Below are positions 35,628 through 58,950 of a DNA stretch of 64,000 bases, piece by piece (position 1 is the first letter of the stretch; the number at the start of each line of letters is the position of its first letter). A program made the translations under genes and the position numbers. The notes beneath the pieces are model-generated. The model saw only the letters and a list, made by a program, of their open reading frames with translations. It ran no database searches and was not told the DNA's origin. Source of the DNA: Thermoplasmata archaeon (GTDB lineage Archaea; Thermoplasmatota; E2; JACPAO01; JAHFTW01); assembly GCA_034667745.1 (NCBI GenBank), contig JAXDQP010000062.1:958-64957 (forward strand), written 5' to 3'.

Positions 35628-35700
35628 TAGCCCCGACCGGATTCGAACCGATGCCAAAAGCTCCAGAGGCTCCTATCCTTGACCACTAGACTACGGGGCT
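35628..35700 (-). tRNA. tRNA-Gln (anticodon CTG)
   Basis: Manual cloverleaf: A1-U72 acceptor AGCCCCG/CGGGGCT, anticodon loop CTCTGGA, T-loop TTCGAAT; 73 nt, CCA not encoded. Confidence 0.75.
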
Positions 35701-35907
35701 TTGTATCTCGTTTCGGTGCTGACCCACCGGCTTTGGGATAGGAACACGTGGAGCTTGGAGGACCAAGTCCAGTGGTCAACTTCGGCCACACAAGACCCCC
35801 ATATAAGGAAAATGGACCTGTGAACGACGCCCGCGCCGTCCACCGCCCCCTTGCCCAGATGCGGCATGGCCATCGCTAGGCAGGAGATGTCATCCAGGTG
35901 CGACAAC

Positions 35908-36300
35908 TTAGGGCGCTGTGCCGACTTGGCGCAAGACAATCTCCTCGGTTTGGCCCACCAGTAGGCAGACGGACCATCCGCAGGAAATGATGGCGCAGAT
36001 GCCATTGAACGTCCATGTGCCGCTGCCGACGCTGAAGTTCGGCACCCAGACATGCGCGCCGATGCCAAACCGGCTCGACTCGGGCCGAACCGGGACCAGG
36101 GGAAGAGGCTCGCTGCCCTCCGTCTTCAGGACACAAGGTCCGCTCACCACGCAGATGTCCACACCATAGCTTTGGCATTCCACGGCGACCGTGATATGGT
36201 CGATGATGTCCGACGGGTTGGGCAGGGGAGGCGTTTCCGCGGAGACGGAGGGGAGGAAGACAATGAGTCCGACCAAGGCCATGCAGGCAGAGCCACGCAT
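35908..36300 (-). CDS. small secreted protein, 130 aa, with signal peptide
   Basis: MRGSACMALVGLIVFLPSVSA signal; Cys-containing. Confidence 0.45.
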   Translation of the reverse strand: MRGSACMALVGLIVFLPSVSAETPPLPNPSDIIDHITVAVECQSYGVDICVVSGPCVLKTEGSEPLPLVPVRPESSRFGIGAHVWVPNFSVGSGTWTFNGICAIISCGWSVCLLVGQTEEIVLRQVGTAP

Positions 36301-36350
36301 GGTTCTGCATCAAATGCACTCAGACCTTAAGCTTACGCTGGCGGATTTTG

Positions 36351-37226
36351 TCAAGTCCTAAGGGAAAACTCTCTGACTTCCCTTCCCTGAACAATCCCCG
36401 TCTGGACCGCCATCGTCCCGCCGCTGGATGACTGCATCACCGCACCTCCATGTGCGGCAAGGGTGCCCGCGTTCCCAACGTAGCTCAACAGGACGGTGTC
36501 GGTGACGTTGGCCCAGACGGAGTGGCCCGCGTTGACCTGATGCAAACGGCCGGGTTCCGTGAACGCGCCCGGCTGGGACGCCGTTGCTTCGCCGCCTCCG
36601 ATGTAGTCGTACACATCCATGCCCCCGCGGAAAACGTGGTATTGGACAGCTGGAGGGGAAGATTGGTCGTCAATCTGGCCCATCAGCGCGCTGAAACCCA
36701 ACTGGGCAAACGCGTCGGCAACGGTCTGGCTGTTGACAATCAGTTCAAGGACGTAGAAGTCGGGTCGGGTGGTGGGGTCTGGCGACGCGACGCTGCTGGG
36801 GACCAGCGCAGGAACCCAGAACTCGGAAATCTGGAAGTTCTTCACGACGGTTTGATTGTCGAGCACGATGGAATCGCAGGAGAACAGGTTAAGGTTGCCT
36901 TGCACGAAGCTGCTGCCCGCCACAGGGTTGGGCGAGTAGCCTTCGGGGAGCAGTGCCTTCACCTTCGATGCCTCTGCCGTGACGTGCGTGGCGTAGCCGA
37001 AGCAATCGTTCATCTCGAATCGGTGCGGAACCGGGGGCGGGAGCGAACAGGTGGGCACGCCGGCCTCCGGACATTTCGGCGGCGTTGTGGTGGGGGACGT
37101 CGTCGGCGTGGGGCCGCTGGACATGGTCTGCGTCGGGTCCGGCTTGGCGTGGTTCGTGCAGCCGGCAAGCAGTACGACAGTGGCCAGCAGCAGGGAAGTG
37201 ATATGGCGGGGAGGAGGGCTGATCAC
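36351..37226 (-). CDS. lipoprotein with Thr/Pro-rich linker
   Basis: Signal plus lipobox LLAGC, then PTPTTSPTTTPP linker. Confidence 0.55.
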   Translation of the reverse strand: MISPPPRHITSLLLATVVLLAGCTNHAKPDPTQTMSSGPTPTTSPTTTPPKCPEAGVPTCSLPPPVPHRFEMNDCFGYATHVTAEASKVKALLPEGYSPNPVAGSSFVQGNLNLFSCDSIVLDNQTVVKNFQISEFWVPALVPSSVASPDPTTRPDFYVLELIVNSQTVADAFAQLGFSALMGQIDDQSSPPAVQYHVFRGGMDVYDYIGGGEATASQPGAFTEPGRLHQVNAGHSVWANVTDTVLLSYVGNAGTLAAHGGAVMQSSSGGTMAVQTGIVQGREVREFSLRT

Positions 37227-38950
37227 GTTAGGCCTCGGGAGCCGGCGGATTGGGTGCTGGCGGCGCTGGCAAAACGGGGATTGGTTTGCGGCAATAAACC
37301 CGCTTCCGCTTGAAGGGGCATGGCTTCACCGCCGGGCTTGCCCGTGAGCGCCCTGCGGGCATCCAGGAGCGCCATCGCCTGGGCGCGGATGGCCCAAAAT
37401 GTTTGGCGTCCGGCAGGAACGCGTTCGAGGACCCCTTGGCGTTCCATCAGGTGGATGTGGTAAGAAAGTCCACTCCTACCTGAGGTGTGCGGGATCTGGG
37501 CAACCAAGTCCCGGAAGGCAACGGGTCGACCGGCGTCCCGCAAGATGTCCAGGAGCGCCCCCCGCAGCGGATGGTTGGCGTGCGCCAGCACCACCTGGTG
37601 GAGCTCAGACACTTTGGCGGTCGCGCCGACGCCAAGGGGCGCGAAATGCTGGCGGTGGCCTTGCTGGTAGACTTGGATATGGCCACCTTTTTGGAGGATG
37701 GCGATGTGGAAGGCGAGCGTGGTCTTCCGGATGCCGAATTCCGCGGCAAGCTGCGTCGCGGTTGTCCCAGGGGATTCCTGAATCTTGCGCAGCATGCAAA
37801 CCCGCGTGGGATGATGCAGGGCTTGGGCGCGGTTGCGGCCCAGTACGACCAACCGAAGGTCACGGCCCAGGGATGTGAAGGCCAAAGTCAGCCACGCGAC
37901 GAGGCCGATTCCGCCCACGACTGCAAGGCCTTCTCCCAAGCGGGAACCGAGGACGCGCAATCCGTCGATGCCAAGGAACGTCGCGGTTCCGTTAAGGCGC
38001 CAATGGGAGCCGGCTCCATCGTAGGTTCCCTTCATGTGGAAGTCGCCAACAGCCTGGACGAGGCCAATGCGGGAGGAGTACCTGGCATCGACATCGGTGC
38101 GAGTCACATCTGTGAAGGCCATGTCGCCTCGGATTGCGCCGTCGAAGTCGCCCAGAAGAAGGTTCCACAGGCTTCCGCGGTCCTGATGGAGTTGCAGTGT
38201 CACCGCATTCGGCGAAGCAATCACCACATAGGTTTGGTCATAGACGCCCCCCGCCGTGTAAACGGTGGGTTCGTCGGCCGTGAGGCCTGAGCGCGGGGAA
38301 AAACCGGTGGAGATCTCGCGGTGGAGTTGGCCATTGTCGAGGATAACCCGAGCGCCGTAGGTAATGCCAAGGAAGGCTCCGGCAAGGGACTGGGGGCCCG
38401 GCTGGTCGCGGTGGAGACGTCCGAATGGAGCCTGGGCACGGGCCAAGGTGACGGGTTCATGGAGATGGTGGGGGAAGCCAGGTGGAATCTCAACGGACTG
38501 CATTCCGTTCAGGTTTAGCTGGAGGTCTTGGGCATCGGCCTGATAGGGCCGGAATTCGATGGTGGCGGGCGTCTGCTCAGAGAGGATTGTGACGTTCCCG
38601 GTGAATGGGAAATCCTCCAGCATTTGTTCCGGCAATGGAGCGTTTGCCTCCGAGTTTCCAATGGGGTTTTGGCGCGAGGTGGTGACCTGGAGGATGGGGT
38701 CTGTCACGACCTGGACGCGGGCGCCTTGCACGGCAAACGCGGCGGTGACAGTGCCGTTGTGCCAAGCCGAGTTGTAGATGACACCGTGCAGGGAAGCACG
38801 GCCTTGCAGGGTGCCAGTGAGGGTGAAGGTGCCCGTTGAATCGACCGTCCCAGCCAGGGGAAAATGGGACTCGGACGCGCCGTTCGCAGGCAAGGCCACC
38901 GCCAGGATGGCCAGCAGGAGCAAGGTGGACGACCAATGGTTGCCCGTCAT
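37223..38950 (-). CDS. membrane-anchored regulator: N-terminal signal/anchor, ~420-aa extracytoplasmic beta-rich domain, one TM helix, cytoplasmic tandem winged-helix DNA-binding domains
   Basis: Start MTGNHWSSTLLLLAILAVALPANG; TM GLAVVGGIGLVAWLTLAFTSLG; wHTH-like segments ..TTATQLAAEFGIRKTTLAFHIAILQKGGHI.. and ..LLDILRDAGRPVAFRDLVAQI..LSYHIHLMERQGVLERV; TATA-like box about 19-25 nt upstream of the ATG. Confidence 0.55.
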   Translation of the reverse strand: MTGNHWSSTLLLLAILAVALPANGASESHFPLAGTVDSTGTFTLTGTLQGRASLHGVIYNSAWHNGTVTAAFAVQGARVQVVTDPILQVTTSRQNPIGNSEANAPLPEQMLEDFPFTGNVTILSEQTPATIEFRPYQADAQDLQLNLNGMQSVEIPPGFPHHLHEPVTLARAQAPFGRLHRDQPGPQSLAGAFLGITYGARVILDNGQLHREISTGFSPRSGLTADEPTVYTAGGVYDQTYVVIASPNAVTLQLHQDRGSLWNLLLGDFDGAIRGDMAFTDVTRTDVDARYSSRIGLVQAVGDFHMKGTYDGAGSHWRLNGTATFLGIDGLRVLGSRLGEGLAVVGGIGLVAWLTLAFTSLGRDLRLVVLGRNRAQALHHPTRVCMLRKIQESPGTTATQLAAEFGIRKTTLAFHIAILQKGGHIQVYQQGHRQHFAPLGVGATAKVSELHQVVLAHANHPLRGALLDILRDAGRPVAFRDLVAQIPHTSGRSGLSYHIHLMERQGVLERVPAGRQTFWAIRAQAMALLDARRALTGKPGGEAMPLQAEAGLLPQTNPRFASAASTQSAGSRGLT

Positions 38951-38965
38951 GTTCCGGGGCTTCCA

Positions 38966-38978
38966 CCCGTCAGTCCGT
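38966..38978 (-). promoter_or_regulatory. TATA-box-like element (AAATATA on minus strand) about 19-25 nt upstream of the 38950 start; suggests a leaderless transcript
   Basis: Read directly from sequence. Confidence 0.35.
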
Positions 38979-39111
38979 ATATTTGTCTTGGCGTGACGGG
39001 ACTCCGATGGCGACAGCATGTGGCAAAAACCACCAGGCTGTGGTATTATGCCACTGACCCTTGGCTTGGCTTTGGATGTCTGGCCTCGCGACCGACACGG
39101 AGACCCAAACC

Positions 39112-40251
39112 ATGCATCGACCCAACACCCCACAAACCCCCCGGACCGCCGCCAAGGTTGGCGCCGCCATCTTTTTGGCCGCCACCCTGGCCGCCATTCC
39201 GACCTCGCAAGCGTTCCAAACTGTGCAGGCCAGGGACCAGGCGCTCGTCAAGGTCTGGAACACGCTTTGCAACCCAGTCCAGATTGCCGCCGCGCCGCCG
39301 AACGGGCCGCCAACTCCTGGAAACGGCCCACCTCCGCCGGGCGCGAACGCCCTTGGTGCAGGCTACCGTCCCGTCTATTGCCAGAACACGAATGACCTCA
39401 TCCGCTTCCTCCGTGGCGGCGGCGGGCCAGGCCCATGCCAAGGTGACTTGGCAGTGTCGAACCTCTGCGGCCTGGACGCGGACCCCCTTGTTGCCTTCGC
39501 AGGTGGCCTCGTTGGCAGCGGCCTAGGCTGCGCCCAAAACGCGCCTGGCCCCGACGGGGGAGAGGGCAACCTCGGTCTTCTTGATGGCATGGCGCAATAC
39601 AGTGTGGGCGGCTTCGTCACCTACAAGAATCCCTGCGGCGACCTAACCCTCCCCACACCGCTCATTCCAGCCGGGTTTGACTTGGGCACCATCACTACGC
39701 CCCCGTTTGGGGCGCCCCGATTCACTCTTGACACGGGGTGCCAACACGAGCCCGGGAAGGCGTTTGCGTGGGACTACAACTTCAACATGGCCTTGGACGT
39801 TGGGCTTGCGGTCTATTCCGGCCAAGCCCCGTTCTACCTGGCCGGCTCCTCGGTCACTCTCCACATCACGCCGACGACGTTCTCCGTCAACGGAGGCGGC
39901 GGTGGGGACACGGAGGAAGGCTGCGTGGGCACGGAGCTTGCAGACCAAGCCATCAAGGCCAACCTCCTGATGACCCAGGCCAACGCGTACGTGAAGGCCA
40001 AGGCATGGCCCGTTGACGGGGATGTCCGCTACCTCAAACTCTCGACGGGTGACTGGCTGCTGGACTTTCCCGGGCACGGCCTCGGCACCCTGGACTTTTC
40101 GGAGACGATTGCGTCCGACGTCATCCACGTGGGCACGACCAAGTTCAGCTTCGAGGCGACCTGGGTCGTGCTGCAGACCTGCCCGGCCACCACCACGGTT
40201 TGCGCCGGTGGCGTGGTTTGGGAACGCGGCGACAGCCTCGTGACAACGTAG
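39112..40251 (+). CDS. secreted Cys/Gly-rich protein, 379 aa
   Basis: Signal peptide ..AAIFLAATLAAIPTSQA; many Cys; no recognisable catalytic motif. Confidence 0.5.
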   Translation: MHRPNTPQTPRTAAKVGAAIFLAATLAAIPTSQAFQTVQARDQALVKVWNTLCNPVQIAAAPPNGPPTPGNGPPPPGANALGAGYRPVYCQNTNDLIRFLRGGGGPGPCQGDLAVSNLCGLDADPLVAFAGGLVGSGLGCAQNAPGPDGGEGNLGLLDGMAQYSVGGFVTYKNPCGDLTLPTPLIPAGFDLGTITTPPFGAPRFTLDTGCQHEPGKAFAWDYNFNMALDVGLAVYSGQAPFYLAGSSVTLHITPTTFSVNGGGGGDTEEGCVGTELADQAIKANLLMTQANAYVKAKAWPVDGDVRYLKLSTGDWLLDFPGHGLGTLDFSETIASDVIHVGTTKFSFEATWVVLQTCPATTTVCAGGVVWERGDSLVTT

Positions 40252-40388
40252 GCCGAGAGGGGTTCAACTCTTTTCCTTCTTTTCCGAAAATCTGGAGTTC
40301 CATGCTGCACCGTGAAGCCATTGTCCGCACGCCAAAGCCTCTGCCGCAGCGAAGCAAGCTTTATCTTCCTGCTTCGGAAACGCGGTTC

Positions 40389-41258
40389 ATGCGGGAATCG
40401 TCGTGGCGTTTCGGCGTTCCCTTGCTTTTTCTGACGCTTGCCGTCTCGGGATGCGCGGGCGCCCCGCACGTCAATTCCGGCGCTCGTTCCTCTCCCCTGA
40501 ACGAATGGGACTACATCCTCCCCCATCAGCACGGGGCCTATGCGCTTCGTTACGAAATCAGTGGTCCCAAAGACCAAGAGTGCCGTGGGCACCAGGTCTG
40601 GTACCAGGCGAACAACCACTATGGCATCGATCAGTTGGTCTACCAGGAAGGCGGGGACTTGGGCGGCTCCTACGGCGAGCCTGCCGTCCACGCCCAGGTT
40701 GGGCCGTTGCTTGACACGCGCGATGACACCGGGACGGGAACCATCAACGTCAACCAGACGCTGACCTTCAGGCTCGACCCGGCCCGCGGCGCCTACGTCT
40801 CCTATTTCGGCAACCTCACGGCTGCGGACCCCGCGTTCGCCGCCAACTTCAATCTCCCCAACTCGCTTGAGCTCCACGTCCGTTGCCCCGCGGGAACCAC
40901 CATCAAGCTGCTGGGCGTTGGAACGGAGTCCATGCCGGTCCTGCTTGGGACCCTGAAAGGCGCTGCAACCGCGTCCCAGAGGGAACGGTTCGGCAGTGAC
41001 GTGGTTGTCCAAGGCAGCGCAAGCAAGACGTTCACCTCCGCGATGGTTTCTTTCCGGCTCGAGAGCGTCTCTGGGCTGAACGGTGCCGGGCTTGTCATGA
41101 TGAACCACCCAGCGCGGCAAGAAGCCTGGCCGATGTACAGCCTCCTTTCCAAGGAGTTCACGGACGGGCCGGGCGACTATTCCATCACAATCAATGATGC
41201 GCGGCCTGAAGGCCATTTCTTTGCCATTGCCATCGGGTTCAACCCGCCTGAAAGGTGA
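40389..41258 (+). CDS. lipoprotein, 289 aa
   Basis: Signal plus lipobox LTLAVSGC. Confidence 0.5.
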   Translation: MRESSWRFGVPLLFLTLAVSGCAGAPHVNSGARSSPLNEWDYILPHQHGAYALRYEISGPKDQECRGHQVWYQANNHYGIDQLVYQEGGDLGGSYGEPAVHAQVGPLLDTRDDTGTGTINVNQTLTFRLDPARGAYVSYFGNLTAADPAFAANFNLPNSLELHVRCPAGTTIKLLGVGTESMPVLLGTLKGAATASQRERFGSDVVVQGSASKTFTSAMVSFRLESVSGLNGAGLVMMNHPARQEAWPMYSLLSKEFTDGPGDYSITINDARPEGHFFAIAIGFNPPER

Positions 41259-41314
41259 CCGGAAGTTGTTGGTGGCCACAATCGGTTCTTGGAGGTCGTG
41301 TGTGGCCGCTTCGA

Positions 41315-41388
41315 TGGGCCTGGCCGGAATCGAACCGGCGACCTGCGCTTTGTAAGAGCGCCGTCATGAACCCCTAGACCACAGGCCC
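41315..41388 (-). tRNA. tRNA-Val (anticodon TAC)
   Basis: Manual cloverleaf: acceptor GGGCCTG/CAGGCCC, anticodon stem GCGCT/AGCGC with loop CTTACAA, T-arm GCCGG-TTCGATT-CCGGC; 74 nt. Confidence 0.85.
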
Positions 41389-41442: not shown

Positions 41443-42132
41443 CTAGTTGCCGGTGGGGCGCACGACGCCCTGCGTGTAGAGCAGGACGAGGAACGTGATG
41501 CAGAGCGTGAGGGCGATGCCGTAGGCGACCTTGCTCCAGCGCAGCACCTTGCGGCCGTCGAGCTGGCCGAACGGGAGGAGGTTGAGCAGGCAGAGGCCGC
41601 CGTTGGCGGTCGCGACGAGCGCCATCATGCGGGGCAGCGGGGCGTCGGGGTTGACGGCGAGGGCGAAGGGGAAGGCGATGGCGCCGATGAGGAGGTTGGT
41701 GCCGGGGCCGACGAGGCTGATGATGCCGTTCTCGCGGCGCGTCACCTGGCCCTGGATGACGACGGCGCCGGGGGCGGCGGCGAGCACGCCGATGCCCATG
41801 GCGAGCAGGAGGCTGATGATGAGGCCGGTGAACTGCGCGCGGAACTCGGCCCAGTGGCCGTAGCGCTGCGCGACGACCTTGTGCGCCAGCTCGTGCAGGA
41901 CGAAGCCGGAGCCGATGGCCATCAGCGAGTCCAGCAGGAGGGCGGGGGAGGGGAGGTTGTCGAAGCGGTAGGGGTTGCCGAAGCCGTCCTTGAGGACGAG
42001 GGCGAGGCACACGGTGAGGATGGCGATGGCGCCCGCGATGTGCAGCACCTCCTGCAGGCTGAACGTGATGCGGGGGCGCCCCGCGTGGGGCTTGGGCTGC
42101 GGGACGTAGAAGGGGTTGTAGGCGGGCCTCAC
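41443..42132 (-). CDS. M50-family (site-2-protease-like) membrane zinc metalloprotease
   Basis: HELAH zinc motif within TM region, multiple TM helices, LDG motif. Confidence 0.8.
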   Translation of the reverse strand: MRPAYNPFYVPQPKPHAGRPRITFSLQEVLHIAGAIAILTVCLALVLKDGFGNPYRFDNLPSPALLLDSLMAIGSGFVLHELAHKVVAQRYGHWAEFRAQFTGLIISLLLAMGIGVLAAAPGAVVIQGQVTRRENGIISLVGPGTNLLIGAIAFPFALAVNPDAPLPRMMALVATANGGLCLLNLLPFGQLDGRKVLRWSKVAYGIALTLCITFLVLLYTQGVVRPTGN

Positions 42133-43280
42133 CCGAACACCCGGAAGATGTAGAGGCCGGTCAGGAAGTTGCCGACGATGGCGCCGAGGTTGGTCAGCGC
42201 CGTCACGAGGAGGATGCGCACGACGCCGTTGCGCCAGAACTCGCCTAGGGTCTCAATCTGCTTGATGGCCTGGAAGTCGGCCACCTTCGGGGTGCGGACC
42301 TTCGCCTCGACGAGGCCCGCGAACCAGCCGGAGGCCAGCACGGGGTGGAAGATCTTGGTGGGCGCCGCGACGGCCGCCGTCAGGATGGAGAGGGGGTGGC
42401 CGAACGCGATGGCCGCGCCCGCGGCCGCGCCGATGCTGGTGAACAGGATGTAGGCGAGCAGGCTGCTCTTGAGGTGCTCGACCTGGCTCGTCACCAGCAG
42501 GTAGGCGAGGCCGGCGGCCAGGATGAGCGGCAGGGCGTAGGCGAAGACGCGGCCGAACGTGACGCGCTTCTTCGGCAGCGTGAGCAGGCCCTCGCGGGGG
42601 GGAATCCTGCTCGGGGACTCCAGCAGCCTGCGGATGCCGGCGAGGTGCCCGGCCCCCACCACGGCCACGAGGGGGCCGAAGGCGGCGCGCTCCTTGATGT
42701 GGCTCGCCATGAAGGAGTCGCGCTCGTCAATGAGGGCAATCTTGACCACGGGAGCGAACTTGGCGAACTGCTCCGTCATCTCCGTGATGGCGTCCTGCTC
42801 CAGCAGCTTCTCGACGTCCACGGGCTCGCGCTGGCCCGGCGTCAGGACCTGCCGCATGACGTTCCAGAACAGGCGCAGCTTGGCCCAGCCGCCCATCGCG
42901 CCGAAGCCGCGCTTGAGGGTGATGGCGACCTCGCGGTCGATGAGGACCACCTCGGCGCCGACCTCCTCCGCCACCTCGACGGCGCGCAGCAATTCGGTGC
43001 CGGGGGGGACGCCGGTCTCGCGGCCCATGCTGCCCTGCATCGCCGACAGGTAGAGCTGGAGCAGGAAGAGGTGCTGCTTCTTCTGGCGGATGACCTGGAT
43101 GATGTCGGTGTTCTGCCACGCCTCGGGGTCGCGCAGGGCCTTGAGGCGGCCCGGGTCGAGCTCGACCAGGACCTGCTTGGGGCGCTGCGCGCGGATGGTG
43201 CCCTCGACCTCGGCCACGCTGGTGGCGCTGACGTGGGCGGTGCCGACGACGGTGACGCCGCCCGGCAAGGTCTCAATCAC
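42129..43280 (-). CDS. TraB/PrgY-family protein
   Basis: GTG at 43280; GTAHVS motif, C-terminal TM helices; the upstream part of the long ORF (to 43889) is antisense junk. Confidence 0.7.
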   Translation of the reverse strand: MIETLPGGVTVVGTAHVSATSVAEVEGTIRAQRPKQVLVELDPGRLKALRDPEAWQNTDIIQVIRQKKQHLFLLQLYLSAMQGSMGRETGVPPGTELLRAVEVAEEVGAEVVLIDREVAITLKRGFGAMGGWAKLRLFWNVMRQVLTPGQREPVDVEKLLEQDAITEMTEQFAKFAPVVKIALIDERDSFMASHIKERAAFGPLVAVVGAGHLAGIRRLLESPSRIPPREGLLTLPKKRVTFGRVFAYALPLILAAGLAYLLVTSQVEHLKSSLLAYILFTSIGAAAGAAIAFGHPLSILTAAVAAPTKIFHPVLASGWFAGLVEAKVRTPKVADFQAIKQIETLGEFWRNGVVRILLVTALTNLGAIVGNFLTGLYIFRVFG

Positions 43281-43405
43281 GGACAGCGCACGCAAACGGG
43301 GGCACGATATGACGGTGTTGGATGGATGGCCGGCGCTGGCGGTCCACGCCACAACGCGCGCCGCCGTTGCCCATCCTTTAAGACCGGGCCTTCTGTCCGC
43401 GACGC

Positions 43406-54988: not shown

Positions 54989-57900
54989 CTAGGGCGACCA
55001 CAGCGAGACCGTCCCCGGCAGTTGGCCCAGGCTGGCCTCGAAGCTGCCGCCGCCCGCCGGGAGGTCCAGCGCGCCGACGACGATGCGGCCGTCCGCGAGG
55101 GCCGCGCCGCCCAGGACGCCGCCTCCCGCGTCCAGCGAGACCGCCTCGCGGCCGGTGTGGAGGTCGTAGGCCTTGAGCTGCCCCGCGTAGGAGCCAATCC
55201 AGGCGAGGCCGTTGCCGATGGCCACCGGCGCGAAGGCCGTCGAGGGCAGGGACTGCTCCCACAGCAGGTCGCCGGTCGCCGCGTCGAAGCCGGCGATGCG
55301 GTCCGCGTCCGTGGAGCTGATGACCTCGACGCCGTCCGCGTAGCCGCCGGAGCCGACCAAGGCGGTGCGCATCTCCAGCAGGTGGCTGCCGTGCAGGAGC
55401 GCGCCGGTGCCGAGGTCCACCGCCCACGCGGGCCCGTGCTTCTCGGAGGCCAGGACGACGGGGCGGCCCGCCACGACGGCGAGGTGCGGGGTGCCGCTGA
55501 GGTCGCGGTTCATGGCGCGCGTCACCTCCGGCGTCGTCTCCTGGTTCGTGTCGTAGGGGAAGAAGCGGTGGCTCCAGACGAGGTGGCCGTCGGCGCGGTC
55601 GAGCGCGAGCAGGGAGTCCATCGTGGCGGGCTGGCCGGTGTCCGTGCCGGGGCTGGTGCCGACGACGACGAGGCCGCTGCCGCCGGGCGCAAGCGGCGAG
55701 GCCCAGACGCGGGCGCCGGAGTTCGGCTGCGGCGCGGTGGGCACTTGCCACACGAGCGCGCCGGTGGCGGGCACCAGGCGGGCGACGTAGCCACGGTCGG
55801 CATCGACGCCAACGAAGAGGTCGCCGCCCTGCACGGTGGGGCTGGCCCACAGGCGGCCGGTGAACGCGTGGCTCCACGCGATGGCGCCCGTGTCGGCGCG
55901 GAGCGCGTAGAGGGTGGGGCCGGCGCCCACGAGAACAAGGCCGTCGGACAGCGAGGCCGACCCGTCGACGGGCGCGGGCAGCGTGGTGCGCCACACGACG
56001 GCGCCGGTGGCGGCGTTGAGGGCGTACATCGACTTGCCCCAGGTGCCGACGTAGACGCGCCCGTCCACGACGGCGGGCGTGGCCGTGACGCTGCCGTCAA
56101 CGTGCGCGCGCCAGCGCAGGGTCACGCCGGGGGCGGTCGGGCTGGGCAGCGTCGGGTCGGGGTTGCTGCGGGTGTTCCAGCTGTCGCGCCCGTACTGCGG
56201 CCAACCGGTTGCCTCGGCAGGCGGGTCCACGGTTGCGATGGGAAGCGGTGAGGGGACGCTCGCGGAGGGCGTCACCGAGAGCGTGTCGAAGCGCGCCGTC
56301 GGCCCCGTGAACGGGTCCTCGAACGAGGCGCCAAGCGTGTAGCCGACGCCCGCGACAAGGTAGCGTTGCGCCGTGAGGTCGATGGTGGTTCCCTGCACGG
56401 CCTCCGCGACGACGGTGCGGTTGAGCCAGAGATGCACGAGCGGCCCCACTGTCGCGACGGTGCCGGCGCCCTGCACGCGCAGGTCGTACCAGCCGGACTC
56501 CTGCACCACGACGGGGGACTCCAGGAAGCCGAAGTCGGTGAACTTCCAGCCAGGGCCCTCCGCCGCGCCGCCCGAATGGACGCGGGCTGCGGCGCCGGTG
56601 AAGGTGAGCGGTGGCGGGCTGCCGTCGATGCGCAGGTCGGACAGGACGACGGGGCCGCCCACGGCGCGGTAGGTCACGGTGCGCTGGCCGCCGGGCAGGT
56701 CGAAGGGCGTGAGGCGGGGCCGCGCGACGGGTCCCGCCACGAGGGCGTCCTGCGCAAGCACCCCATCGACGTCCACCTGGACGCGCTGGCGCACGTTCAG
56801 CTCCGGCGGCGTGGCCACCATCGCGAGCAGGTCGCCGGGGCCGCCCATCCACGCGAACTGGAAGCTGCGCGACTGGCCCGCCGCCAGCGTGAAGGGGCCG
56901 CCGGGGAAGGTCGAGGCGGCGCCGGTGCGGACCACGTCGAGGATGAGGTTGCGGTCCTCGGTGCTGCTTGCGGCGTCGTTGGTGAACGAGATGCGCAGGA
57001 GGTGGTCGCCGCTGGGCAGGATGGGCGCCGCGTAGTCCGCGAACGCCGCACTGGCCACTGCCACCGTGTAGACGAGGGCGCCATCGACCCGGACCTGCAT
57101 CTGCGGCCAGGCGCCGCCAAGCGGGGTGCCGCGCGCCACGATGGTCAGCGGGTTGGTGCCGTCGCCGGCGACGTGGTCCTCGACGTAGCCGTTCGTCCAC
57201 AGGTTCCACGCCGCGCCTCCGCTGGCGCTGCCGGTGAGCACCTTGCCGCCCGTGCTCTTCACGGCGAACGCCTCGGCCTCGAGCGAGCCGGGGCTGCCGG
57301 GCGGCGGCGGGGGAGGGGGCGGTGGCGGAGGCGGCGAGCCGCTGCACGCCGTCGTCGGGGTCGCGGAGGGCCAGGTGTAGCCGCCGGAGAGCGCCGCGGC
57401 TCCGCCGGTGGAGCGGGCGCGGAAATCGACCTTGGAGCCGGGCGTCACGTGAAAGCTCGCGGCCCACCCGCCCCACGACTGCTTGGTGAGCGCGGTCCAG
57501 GTCGCAGGGCAGCCGGCGCGGGCATCGACGCCGGCGAGGGGCTGGTTGGCGTTGACGCTCGCCTGCACCCACCACTCGTTGCCCTGCACGCCCGAGAACG
57601 TGGCCGTGAAGTTGCCGCTGGGTGGCGGGGGCGGCGGTGGGGGTGGCGGAGGCGGGGGAGGCGTGCCGCACTGCTCTACGGCGCCGGGGTGCGTGAACCA
57701 GCAGCTCTCGAAGTTGCTCGCCCCGCCGGGGAACGAGGCGCGGAAGCGGACCTGGTTGCCGGGCTCGACGTGGAAGCTGCCGGCCCACCAGGTGTGGTCG
57801 CTGGTCCAGGCCTGGGGCGAGAGCGCGACCCAGGGGCCGCCGGTGTCCATCGCCTGCACGCTGGAGGCCGTCGCGCCGTCCATGCCGCCGAGGCGGACCT

Positions 57901-58049
57901 GCACCCACCACTCGTTGCCGCCGCCGTCCGCGAACGACACGGTGCGTCCGTTGGGCATCGCCTGCGGATGGTTGGCGGTGGCGGGGAACGCGAACGCCAG
58001 GAGGAGAAAAGCCAAGATGGCGGCCGCTGGGCGCGCGCGTCGTCCCCGC
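54989..58049 (-). CDS. large secreted multidomain protein: signal peptide, two related ~100-aa domains (GNEWWVQ..) separated by poly-Pro linkers, carbohydrate-binding-like module, C-terminal PQQ-type beta-propeller repeats
   Basis: Signal MRGRRARPAAAILAFLLLAFAFPATA; PPPPPPPPPPPPPP runs; repeated GNEWWVQ blocks; propeller repeats YALNAATGAVVWR / YALRADTGAIAWSH / LVWQV / LLWEQ; the ORF-track N-terminal extension rejected. Confidence 0.65.
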
Positions 58050-58161
58050 ATGCGCCCCGATTGGCGACCGCAGGCCGAATCCGCATCCCTATGGGCAACC
58101 CTAGGGCTGCAAAGGTGGGGGGTTCCGCAACCGTTTTCCACCACCGCGCCCGCTCTGCCCT

Positions 58162-58950
58162 GTGCGGGCCTTCCTCCTCGCGGCGCTCCTGCTGGCGGGC
58201 TGCCTGTCGCCGCCCGCCGCTCCCGCAGGCCCAGCAGCCGTGACGGGGCCGGCGACCCATGCGTGGGGCCTGTCGGAGTGCGCCTTCGCCATCGCGCGCG
58301 TCGCCGTGCCCGCGGCCGCCCTCCAGCAGCTCCTTCCAGAGGGGTTCGCGCCCGCGCCGTCCGACCTGCCCGGCGCCGCGGGGGCGCCCGGCGCGGAGCT
58401 GCACCTCGACGCCTACGTGTGCAAGGCCGGCGTGGGCCTCGACGGCTCACCGCTGCGGGAGGTGCAGTACGGCTCCTACTATGTTCCCGCGATTCCGCCG
58501 GCTGCCCTCAAGGAACCCGGCTACGACGCCTATTTCGTGAAACTCCAGCACCTCGTCCCCGACGCGGCCCGGCGCGAGGTCCTAGCGGCAGGCGGCCTGC
58601 CCGCGCTCAACGGCTCGGCCACGGTCACCTCTCTGGGGCCGCGTTGGACGGCCCACCTCGCTCTGGGCGGCGCCGGCGGCTTCTCGCTCGACGGCGTCGC
58701 GCAGCCCGCCACCCCGCAGGGTGCGCCGCTGCCCTTCATCGAGTACACGCCGCTCGCGAAGGGCGGCCTCGCCCGCTGGCACGCGCGGCTGCACGACGCC
58801 ACGCTGGCCTCCGGCGACGGCGTCCTCCGGCTGGCGCCCGGGAAGATGCGCGACCTGGTGGGCGCCGAAGAGGTCCCGGTGCGGTTCCTGGCGGGAACGT
58901 GGAACCTCGACCACGCGGACGTCACGTTCCCGCTGCCTTGGCCGCGCTGA
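58162..58950 (+). CDS. lipoprotein, 262 aa
   Basis: MRAFLLAALLLAGC lipobox. Confidence 0.5.
   Translation: MRAFLLAALLLAGCLSPPAAPAGPAAVTGPATHAWGLSECAFAIARVAVPAAALQQLLPEGFAPAPSDLPGAAGAPGAELHLDAYVCKAGVGLDGSPLREVQYGSYYVPAIPPAALKEPGYDAYFVKLQHLVPDAARREVLAAGGLPALNGSATVTSLGPRWTAHLALGGAGGFSLDGVAQPATPQGAPLPFIEYTPLAKGGLARWHARLHDATLASGDGVLRLAPGKMRDLVGAEEVPVRFLAGTWNLDHADVTFPLPWPR

Follow-up and report, generated by a model that had tools for sequence, protein, structure and literature searches.

How is a signal from outside an archaeal cell carried to its chromosome? Very little is known about this, and ArnR and ArnR1 are the sole membrane-bound regulators that have been studied. Here we analysed a locus that bears on the question, located in a 64,000-nucleotide (64-kb) stretch of DNA, the window, which is part of an 88-kb contig from an uncultured Thermoplasmatota archaeon of about 70% G+C (JGI 3300044739; "Thermoplasmata archaeon" at NCBI). 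Between genes for tRNA-Gln(CTG) (35628-35700, minus strand) and tRNA-Val(TAC) (41315-41388, minus strand), both called by ARAGORN and Rfam, open reading frame (ORF) analysis found five genes, named A to E here, and each of their products has a signal peptide or a lipobox, as an earlier note on this DNA had reported. Gene C (37223-38950, minus strand) encodes a 575-amino-acid (aa) predicted type-I transmembrane transcription regulator, recognized by hydropathy, Pfam and a family profile. The reading that we favour, with moderate confidence, is that the block is a horizontally acquired co-component transmembrane regulator which probably controls the neighbouring genes for secreted proteins. The strongest new results are the linkage of the regulator to a lipoprotein, the unexpected fold predicted for that lipoprotein, a confident model of the regulator's ectodomain, which has no known relative, and a clean insertion between the two tRNA genes. 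The observation made in the earlier note was confirmed and most of its interpretation survives, with corrections to the size of a domain, the size of the module and the rarity of the regulator type.

The earlier note had made the membrane topology of C the test of its interpretation. C begins with a hydrophobic stretch (residues 7-26) and contains one more hydrophobic helix at residues ~341-362 (37865-37930, minus strand; Kyte-Doolittle value 1.93). The region between them, residues 24-340 (37931-38881, minus strand), forms an ectodomain of about 317 aa, which replaces the earlier estimate of about 420 aa. Behind the helix follow two ArsR-type winged helices, the first at residues ~376-440 (37631-37825, minus strand) and the second at residues ~455-523 (37382-37588, minus strand). 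In an alignment of 29 family members, the transmembrane helix was present in every sequence (hydropathy at least 1.71). The 15 residues after the helix contained more lysine and arginine than the segment before it in 25 of the 29 members (mean 2.6 versus 1.3), and N-X-S/T sequons were four times denser on the N-terminal side (1.05 versus 0.26 per 100 aa). These family-wide statistics agree with an N-out/C-in membrane protein, with the ectodomain outside and the winged-helix pair in the cytoplasm, and thus with the topology that had been predicted for C.

The presence of two DNA-binding domains, also stated in the earlier note, was supported by Pfam HTH_20 and by the family profile. Pfam HTH_20 matched C with 44.4 bits (cutoff 27) in two stretches, one at residues 380-423 (E 1.6e-11) and one within the second winged helix, while HTH_5 (21.5 versus 22) and NCBIfam HTH_metalloreg (46.7 versus 55) scored below their cutoffs. 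The C-family profile matched solved structures of the ArsR/SmtB family in two regions, roughly residues 380-446, with matches to the YgaV, ArsR and SmtB structures, and 456-545. The motif HL..L...G is conserved in the winged helices (H415, L419, H498, G506). Winged helices also make protein contacts, and no target genes of C are proven. The pair might instead anchor DNA or another protein at the membrane, for instance during DNA uptake, in segregation or when a surface structure is assembled, and not regulate genes at all. We consider this quite improbable, since both domains match the recognition-helix-and-wing signature of ArsR/SmtB proteins, including the conserved motif, and since C is located at a divergent promoter, as is typical of autoregulated regulators.

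The ectodomain was modelled by AF2 as an all-beta domain of 18 strands with high confidence (pLDDT 93.4, pTM 0.89). It matches no annotated family: sequence searches in Pfam and PDB gave no match, and Foldseek comparison with PDB and BFVD found no neighbour (TM at most 0.13). Word-index searches with the single C sequence or a profile recovered essentially the query alone. Relatives came from comparing 1.84 billion cluster representatives exhaustively by HMMER: 264 of them reached E<=1e-3, with 58 remaining at a threshold of E<=1e-10 and 11 at E<=1e-30. The closest relative has 41% identity, and many relatives align over the full length. Across the 29-member alignment a common plan is kept, comprising a signal peptide, ectodomain, helix and two winged helices, sometimes with a third C-terminal extension, and conservation within the ectodomain is highest close to the membrane. 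The clusters examined hold one to three sequences each, and the few named members are proteins from Thermoplasmatota metagenome-assembled genomes, annotated as hypothetical or ArsR-family. Weaker matches retained the helix and the tandem winged helices but had other N-terminal domains; thus, the general plan of C represents a wider archaeal class with exchangeable ectodomains. For one full-length member (P0014), the NCBI label of the encoding 421-kb contig says simply "bacterium"; the family may extend beyond archaea, or the label may be uninformative.

Does C act alone? We compared nine independent loci besides the window with two control loci that carry pyrB and lack the regulator. A homologue of the lipoprotein encoded by gene B was found near the regulator in all nine; in seven it was directly downstream, and six of these showed a 4-nt overlap between the two genes. 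Neither control locus contained a B homologue. In the window, the overlap of C and B consists of the four nucleotides GTGA, so that the 4-nt overlap given in the earlier note is both present and conserved elsewhere. Gene A (35908-36300, minus strand) is third in the C-B-A operon and encodes a small secreted protein of 130 aa with a signal peptide and seven Cys. Small Cys-containing proteins with a signal peptide occupy the same position in loci L003, L004, L007, L008 and L090, and A and these positional counterparts share a weak motif, GVxEWxPN...WxFxGxC. By gene order, the conserved unit is C-B, usually with A. Genes on the other side of this unit vary by locus and mostly encode exported products, such as Cys-rich proteins, lipoproteins and large surface proteins with CARDB, PKD, TSP3 or fn3 domains. 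Of the five-gene module proposed earlier, C-B recurs and A recurs weakly, but D and E have no detectable relatives. In the most closely related genome, the surroundings of the C-B pair (L002, 11701-16107) include an EVE-domain gene and another gene whose 1007-aa product weakly matches family-B DNA polymerases, possibly part of a mobile element.

Gene B (36351-37226, minus strand) is second in the operon. It starts with GTG and encodes a 291-aa lipoprotein with the lipobox LAGC at residues 20-23 (Cys23), a Thr/Pro-rich linker and a globular domain of about 225 aa. A lipobox was taken to be the motif [L/V/I][A/S/T/V/I][G/A/S]C where it follows a hydrophobic signal stretch (PMC12462473). The public JGI call of B begins at the internal Met72 (220 aa), which makes it 71 residues short and misses the lipobox-bearing N-terminus. 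The longer version is right, because every B homologue starts with a signal region and a lipobox at that position.

An AF2 model of the globular part, built from 22 sequences, reached a pLDDT of 79 and a pTM of 0.79. Foldseek matched it to 24 PDB chains (E 9e-11 to 3e-08, probability 1.0, TM 0.51-0.67), and these belong to the acetoacetate-decarboxylase (ADC) family: MppR, ADC, Sbi00515 and Swit_4259. B is thus predicted to adopt an ADC-like double-barrel fold. At the sequence level, B of the window had no match to Pfam ADC (PF06314), while five of 22 B relatives had weak ones (best E 0.0014). An attempt to place the catalytic lysine of ADC on B by hhalign was given up, as B and ADC aligned at an N-terminal motif alone. 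Among the nine regulator-linked B proteins, the globular domain has no conserved lysine column, and the structural equivalent of the catalytic lysine could not be mapped. What these nine proteins keep are two Cys, which probably form a disulfide, the motif DNxTV, and a handful of aromatic residues and glycines. The lack of a conserved lysine makes a Schiff-base enzyme unlikely and a binding or scaffold role more likely; going by the model, B probably binds something rather than catalyses a reaction.

Most database matches of the B family belong to a different, stand-alone subfamily. This subfamily keeps a Lys in a YFVKL motif, and regulator-linked B proteins lack that Lys. The window itself encodes a stand-alone paralogue at 58162-58950 (plus strand; 262 aa, lipobox LAGC) that has native codon usage, with a G+C content at third codon positions (GC3) of 0.90, and no adjacent regulator. 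Divergent from it, at 54989-58090 (minus strand), lies a gene whose large secreted product contains a PQQ/BamB-like beta-propeller, a CBM60 carbohydrate-binding module and poly-proline linkers; its ORF overlaps the 5' end of the paralogue.

Genes D and E are located on the opposite strand. D (39076 or 39112-40251, plus strand) is divergent from C and encodes a secreted Cys/Gly-rich protein with a signal peptide, ten Cys and 13.7% Gly. Its ATG at 39076 (391 aa) lies 27 nt after the sequence TATTAT. Since this spacing is the same as that of the TATA-like element of C, ATG 39076 is the likelier start, and D probably begins there. E (40389-41258, plus strand) is an orphan lipoprotein of 289 aa with the lipobox VSGC at residues 19-22 behind its hydrophobic signal region. 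The public JGI call of E (40302-41258, 318 aa) starts at an upstream Met and is 29 residues too long. Start-codon calls for exported proteins in this GC-rich source genome look unreliable. For both D and E, no relatives were found in Pfam, NCBIfam, PHROGs, PADLOC, PDB, viral or metagenome contigs, nor beside other members of the C family.

In DNA of such high G+C content, ORFs may arise as mere by-products of composition, and the window indeed contains many long spurious ORFs on both strands. We regard the idea that A to E are of this kind as almost certainly wrong. All five genes keep the coding pattern GC3>GC1>GC2 (G+C at third, first and second codon positions) in their called frames. C and B have many homologues of conserved architecture and order, and both AF2 models are confident. 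D and E lack homologues, yet both carry signals for export, and a TATA-like element precedes each of them at the spacing expected. For A, B and C, the spurious-ORF explanation is already contradicted.

We then considered how the operon might be transcribed and controlled. A TATA-like element of the C-B-A operon, AAATATA, is found at 38978-38984 (minus strand), with its 3' edge 27 nt before the ATG of C. Such elements occur 22-27 nt before the regulator start in five to six of seven loci, clearly in the window, L002, L003, L005 and L007 and weakly in L008; L004 has none. The upstream regions in the window and L002 share a wider pattern, CCAAGA..(A/T)TATA.GGAC. Transcription in archaea starts about 26-27 nt downstream of the centre of the TATA box. 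Taken together, the spacing and this known position support a leaderless C transcript, and the C-B-A messenger RNA is likely to be leaderless, in line with the earlier suggestion for C. The 126-bp intergenic region between C and D also contains a candidate operator made up of two palindromes. Palindrome 1, GTGG-N6-CCAC, is located at 39020-39033; palindrome 2, GTGG-N7-CCAC, is located at 39040-39054, 20 bp from the first, and covers the TATTAT of D. Sites of the form GTGG-N6/7-CCAC occur seven times in the 64-kb window versus about four expected, and two of the seven are those between C and D.

Where did the block come from? Its flanks consist of housekeeping genes, with an XPD helicase and pyrB/pyrI on one side and an M50-type peptidase, TraB and kinases on the other, and the two tRNA genes are the native flanks of the insertion. 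In the closest genome available (L009, GCA_035526765.1; 84% identity in PyrB, 88% in XPD), the order is TraB, M50, tRNA-Val, a 112-bp spacer, tRNA-Gln, pyrB, pyrI and XPD. A second relative (L010, PyrB 73%) also lacks the block and has a spacer of 26 bp between tRNA-Val and tRNA-Gln. The inserted block thus comprises about 5.5 kb (35815-41314); its left limit is approximate and lies just past the conserved TATA of the tRNA-Gln promoter. GC3 is 0.73-0.78 in the five block genes versus 0.96-1.00 in five flanking genes, and the overall G+C content is 0.628 versus 0.704. Because the tRNA genes are adjacent in both relatives and GC3 differs this clearly, the block represents a gain in the source lineage; judged by synteny and composition, it is a horizontally acquired insertion. 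That GC3 is uniform across the block suggests a common type of donor for its five genes. A C-B pair with 41% identity also occurs in GCA_035526765.1, on a separate contig and in other surroundings. Inside D (39812-39829, plus strand), 16/18 nucleotides match the tRNA-Val 3' end, inverted relative to the tRNA; the score of this match was within the range of shuffled controls, and it probably arose by chance.

The comparison with these relatives also bears on how C might work. C could be a latent, membrane-tethered factor from which signal-triggered proteolysis at or near the transmembrane helix frees the tandem winged-helix fragment, with B or A protecting or exposing the cleavage site, as in ToxS/ToxR and anti-sigma cascades. 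A single-pass tether, a long ectodomain and a partner protein would fit, and a site-2-protease-like M50 gene (41443-42132) lies just past tRNA-Val. However, this gene is native: L009 and L010 have it at the same position without the block, which makes its closeness to C coincidental, and no protease gene accompanies C-B at the other loci. Moreover, site-2 proteases usually cut N-in/C-out helices, the orientation opposite to that of the helix in C. We therefore consider release by proteolysis unlikely. As a native neighbour in genomes without the block, the M50 peptidase was rejected as a partner of the system; together with TraB it forms a pair at 41443-43295 (minus strand), beside tRNA-Val, that keeps this position in relatives without the insertion.

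The foreign composition, the tRNA site and the export of all products would also suit the cargo of a mobile element that remodels the cell surface for adhesion or for the exclusion of viruses or competitors, with C as the element's regulator and B, A, D and E as effectors. At one other locus (L005, 9896-13195), a C-B pair whose B copy is truncated to 193 aa has tRNA-Arg(GCG) and the gene of a phage-type integrase as neighbours, and elsewhere large adhesin-like proteins flank the pair. Yet B is tied to C far more tightly than the other neighbours are, being found next to it at every locus and usually overlapping it by 4 nt, which fits a subunit better than a target, and searches of viral contigs, PHROGs and PADLOC gave nothing beyond generic winged-helix similarity. 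On balance, a cargo role for the whole block seems improbable to us. The context at L005 does hint that the cassette is also present at tRNA-linked integration sites elsewhere.

How, then, might a co-component regulator of this kind operate? The core would be the three-gene C-B-A operon, probably transcribed without a leader. Cleavage of the signal peptide would place the 317-aa all-beta domain of C outside, with the single helix crossing the membrane, and the two winged helices, joined in one chain, could act as an internal pseudo-dimer for DNA binding at the membrane. Translation of B would be coupled to that of C via the GTGA overlap, and B would be lipid-anchored at the surface, where it, possibly together with A, might pair with the ectodomain of C to form a receptor. 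The analysis shows the gene structures, topology signals, domain identities, predicted folds, the C-B linkage and the insertion, whereas a contact of this kind, a ligand, the DNA targets and the direction of regulation are inferred. An extracellular or envelope cue would then alter the occupancy, by the winged-helix pair, of operators in the 126-bp divergent promoter region, and the output would be control of C-B-A itself and of the divergent genes D and E.

Several observations weigh against this model. The topology of C was judged only from hydropathy, charge and sequon statistics over the 29 aligned members, and no ligand-binding relative is known for its ectodomain. In the two most distant of the nine loci, B is not immediately downstream of C but divergent-adjacent to it or two genes upstream. 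The GTGG-N6/7-CCAC motif was picked after inspection of the sequence, so that the operator is a candidate only, and no operator motif shared across the loci was seen. Since the genes divergent from C vary from one locus to the next and neither D nor E has a homologue, position alone marks these two as targets. With respect to acquisition, no integrase was found among the five block genes (Pfam, NCBIfam), and no direct or att repeats were found at the block, where tRNA-derived fragments did not exceed shuffle expectation. The earlier suggestion of an island-like acquisition is therefore upheld by synteny and GC3, but not by the tRNA-derived border repeats or an integrase.

Nevertheless, the C family amounts to a defined unit of two or three proteins. 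Its structure models are confident, and it leads to testable predictions, namely that the ectodomain contacts the lipoprotein and that the tandem winged helices bind the short divergent promoter. The locus also provides a clean example of genes recently inserted between two tRNA genes, in a soil-type lineage of uncultured Thermoplasmatota. A bolder interpretation, which we put forward tentatively, is that C-B is the first archaeal co-component surface receptor. In it, a catalytically dead ADC-fold lipoprotein would act as ligand-binding co-receptor and the regulator's ectodomain would represent a new beta fold. The cassette would move among Thermoplasmatota genomes as a transferable "sense and display" surface module, accompanied by varying sets of genes for secreted proteins or adhesins under its control.

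Among known systems, C fits the class of transmembrane transcription regulators, that is, proteins with a DNA-binding domain and at least one transmembrane helix; its regulatory function is predicted. According to a census (PMC10269533), 367 of 404 archaeal species carry such regulators, and single-pass forms with a helix-turn-helix (HTH) are the commonest type. The earlier remark that this kind of factor is rarely described in archaea thus holds for experiments, as only ArnR and ArnR1 have been studied (PMC10269533, PMC6396743), but not for occurrence. The C family, its ectodomain and the linkage to a lipoprotein are not described in that census.

ArnR and ArnR1 of Sulfolobus acidocaldarius (PMC6396743) are, like C, archaeal membrane-bound one-component regulators, and ArnR controls genes for surface structures. 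Their architecture differs, however. ArnR carries its HTH at the N-terminus and two transmembrane helices at the C-terminus, along with a HAMP-like region and a sensor region, and it lacks the large ectodomain, the signal peptide and the partner lipoprotein that C-B possesses. Both cytoplasmic domains of C match the winged-helix family of ArsR/SmtB metalloregulators, but while those are soluble homodimers of about 100-aa subunits with metal sites, C has two copies fused in one membrane-anchored chain. Likewise, B matches the superfamily of ADC, MppR and Sbi00515 by predicted fold, but is predicted to be exported and lipid-anchored and has no conserved Schiff-base lysine. If the model is correct, the ADC fold has gained an exported, lipid-anchored role.

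The closest parallel is found in the co-component systems VtrA/VtrC, ToxR/ToxS and TcpP/TcpH (PMC9214523). There, as in C-B, a single-pass membrane factor is followed by an overlapping or adjacent downstream gene for an extracytoplasmic, membrane-anchored beta-barrel partner, and in both cases the cassettes evolve fast, lie in acquired regions and sit beside genes for exported proteins. In VtrA/VtrC and ToxR/ToxS, the ligand is bound by the barrel of the partner, which dimerizes obligately with the outer domain of the regulator (PMC9214523). The parts are different, though. The bacterial factors have one N-terminal OmpR-type winged helix and a C-terminal sensor, whereas C shows the reverse order behind a signal peptide and has two ArsR-type winged helices. 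Its ectodomain has no PDB neighbour and thus does not match the periplasmic fold of VtrA or ToxR. Partners of the VtrC type are lipocalin-like eight-stranded barrels with a transmembrane helix, whereas B combines an ADC-like fold with a lipid anchor, both predicted. Such systems have been described in enteric bacteria only, and archaea are unmentioned in PMC9214523. C-B is therefore an analogue of VtrA/VtrC and ToxR/ToxS rather than a homologue or a member of their group, and the design of a regulator with an overlapping extracytoplasmic partner would have arisen in archaea independently of the enteric-bacterial systems and from different folds.

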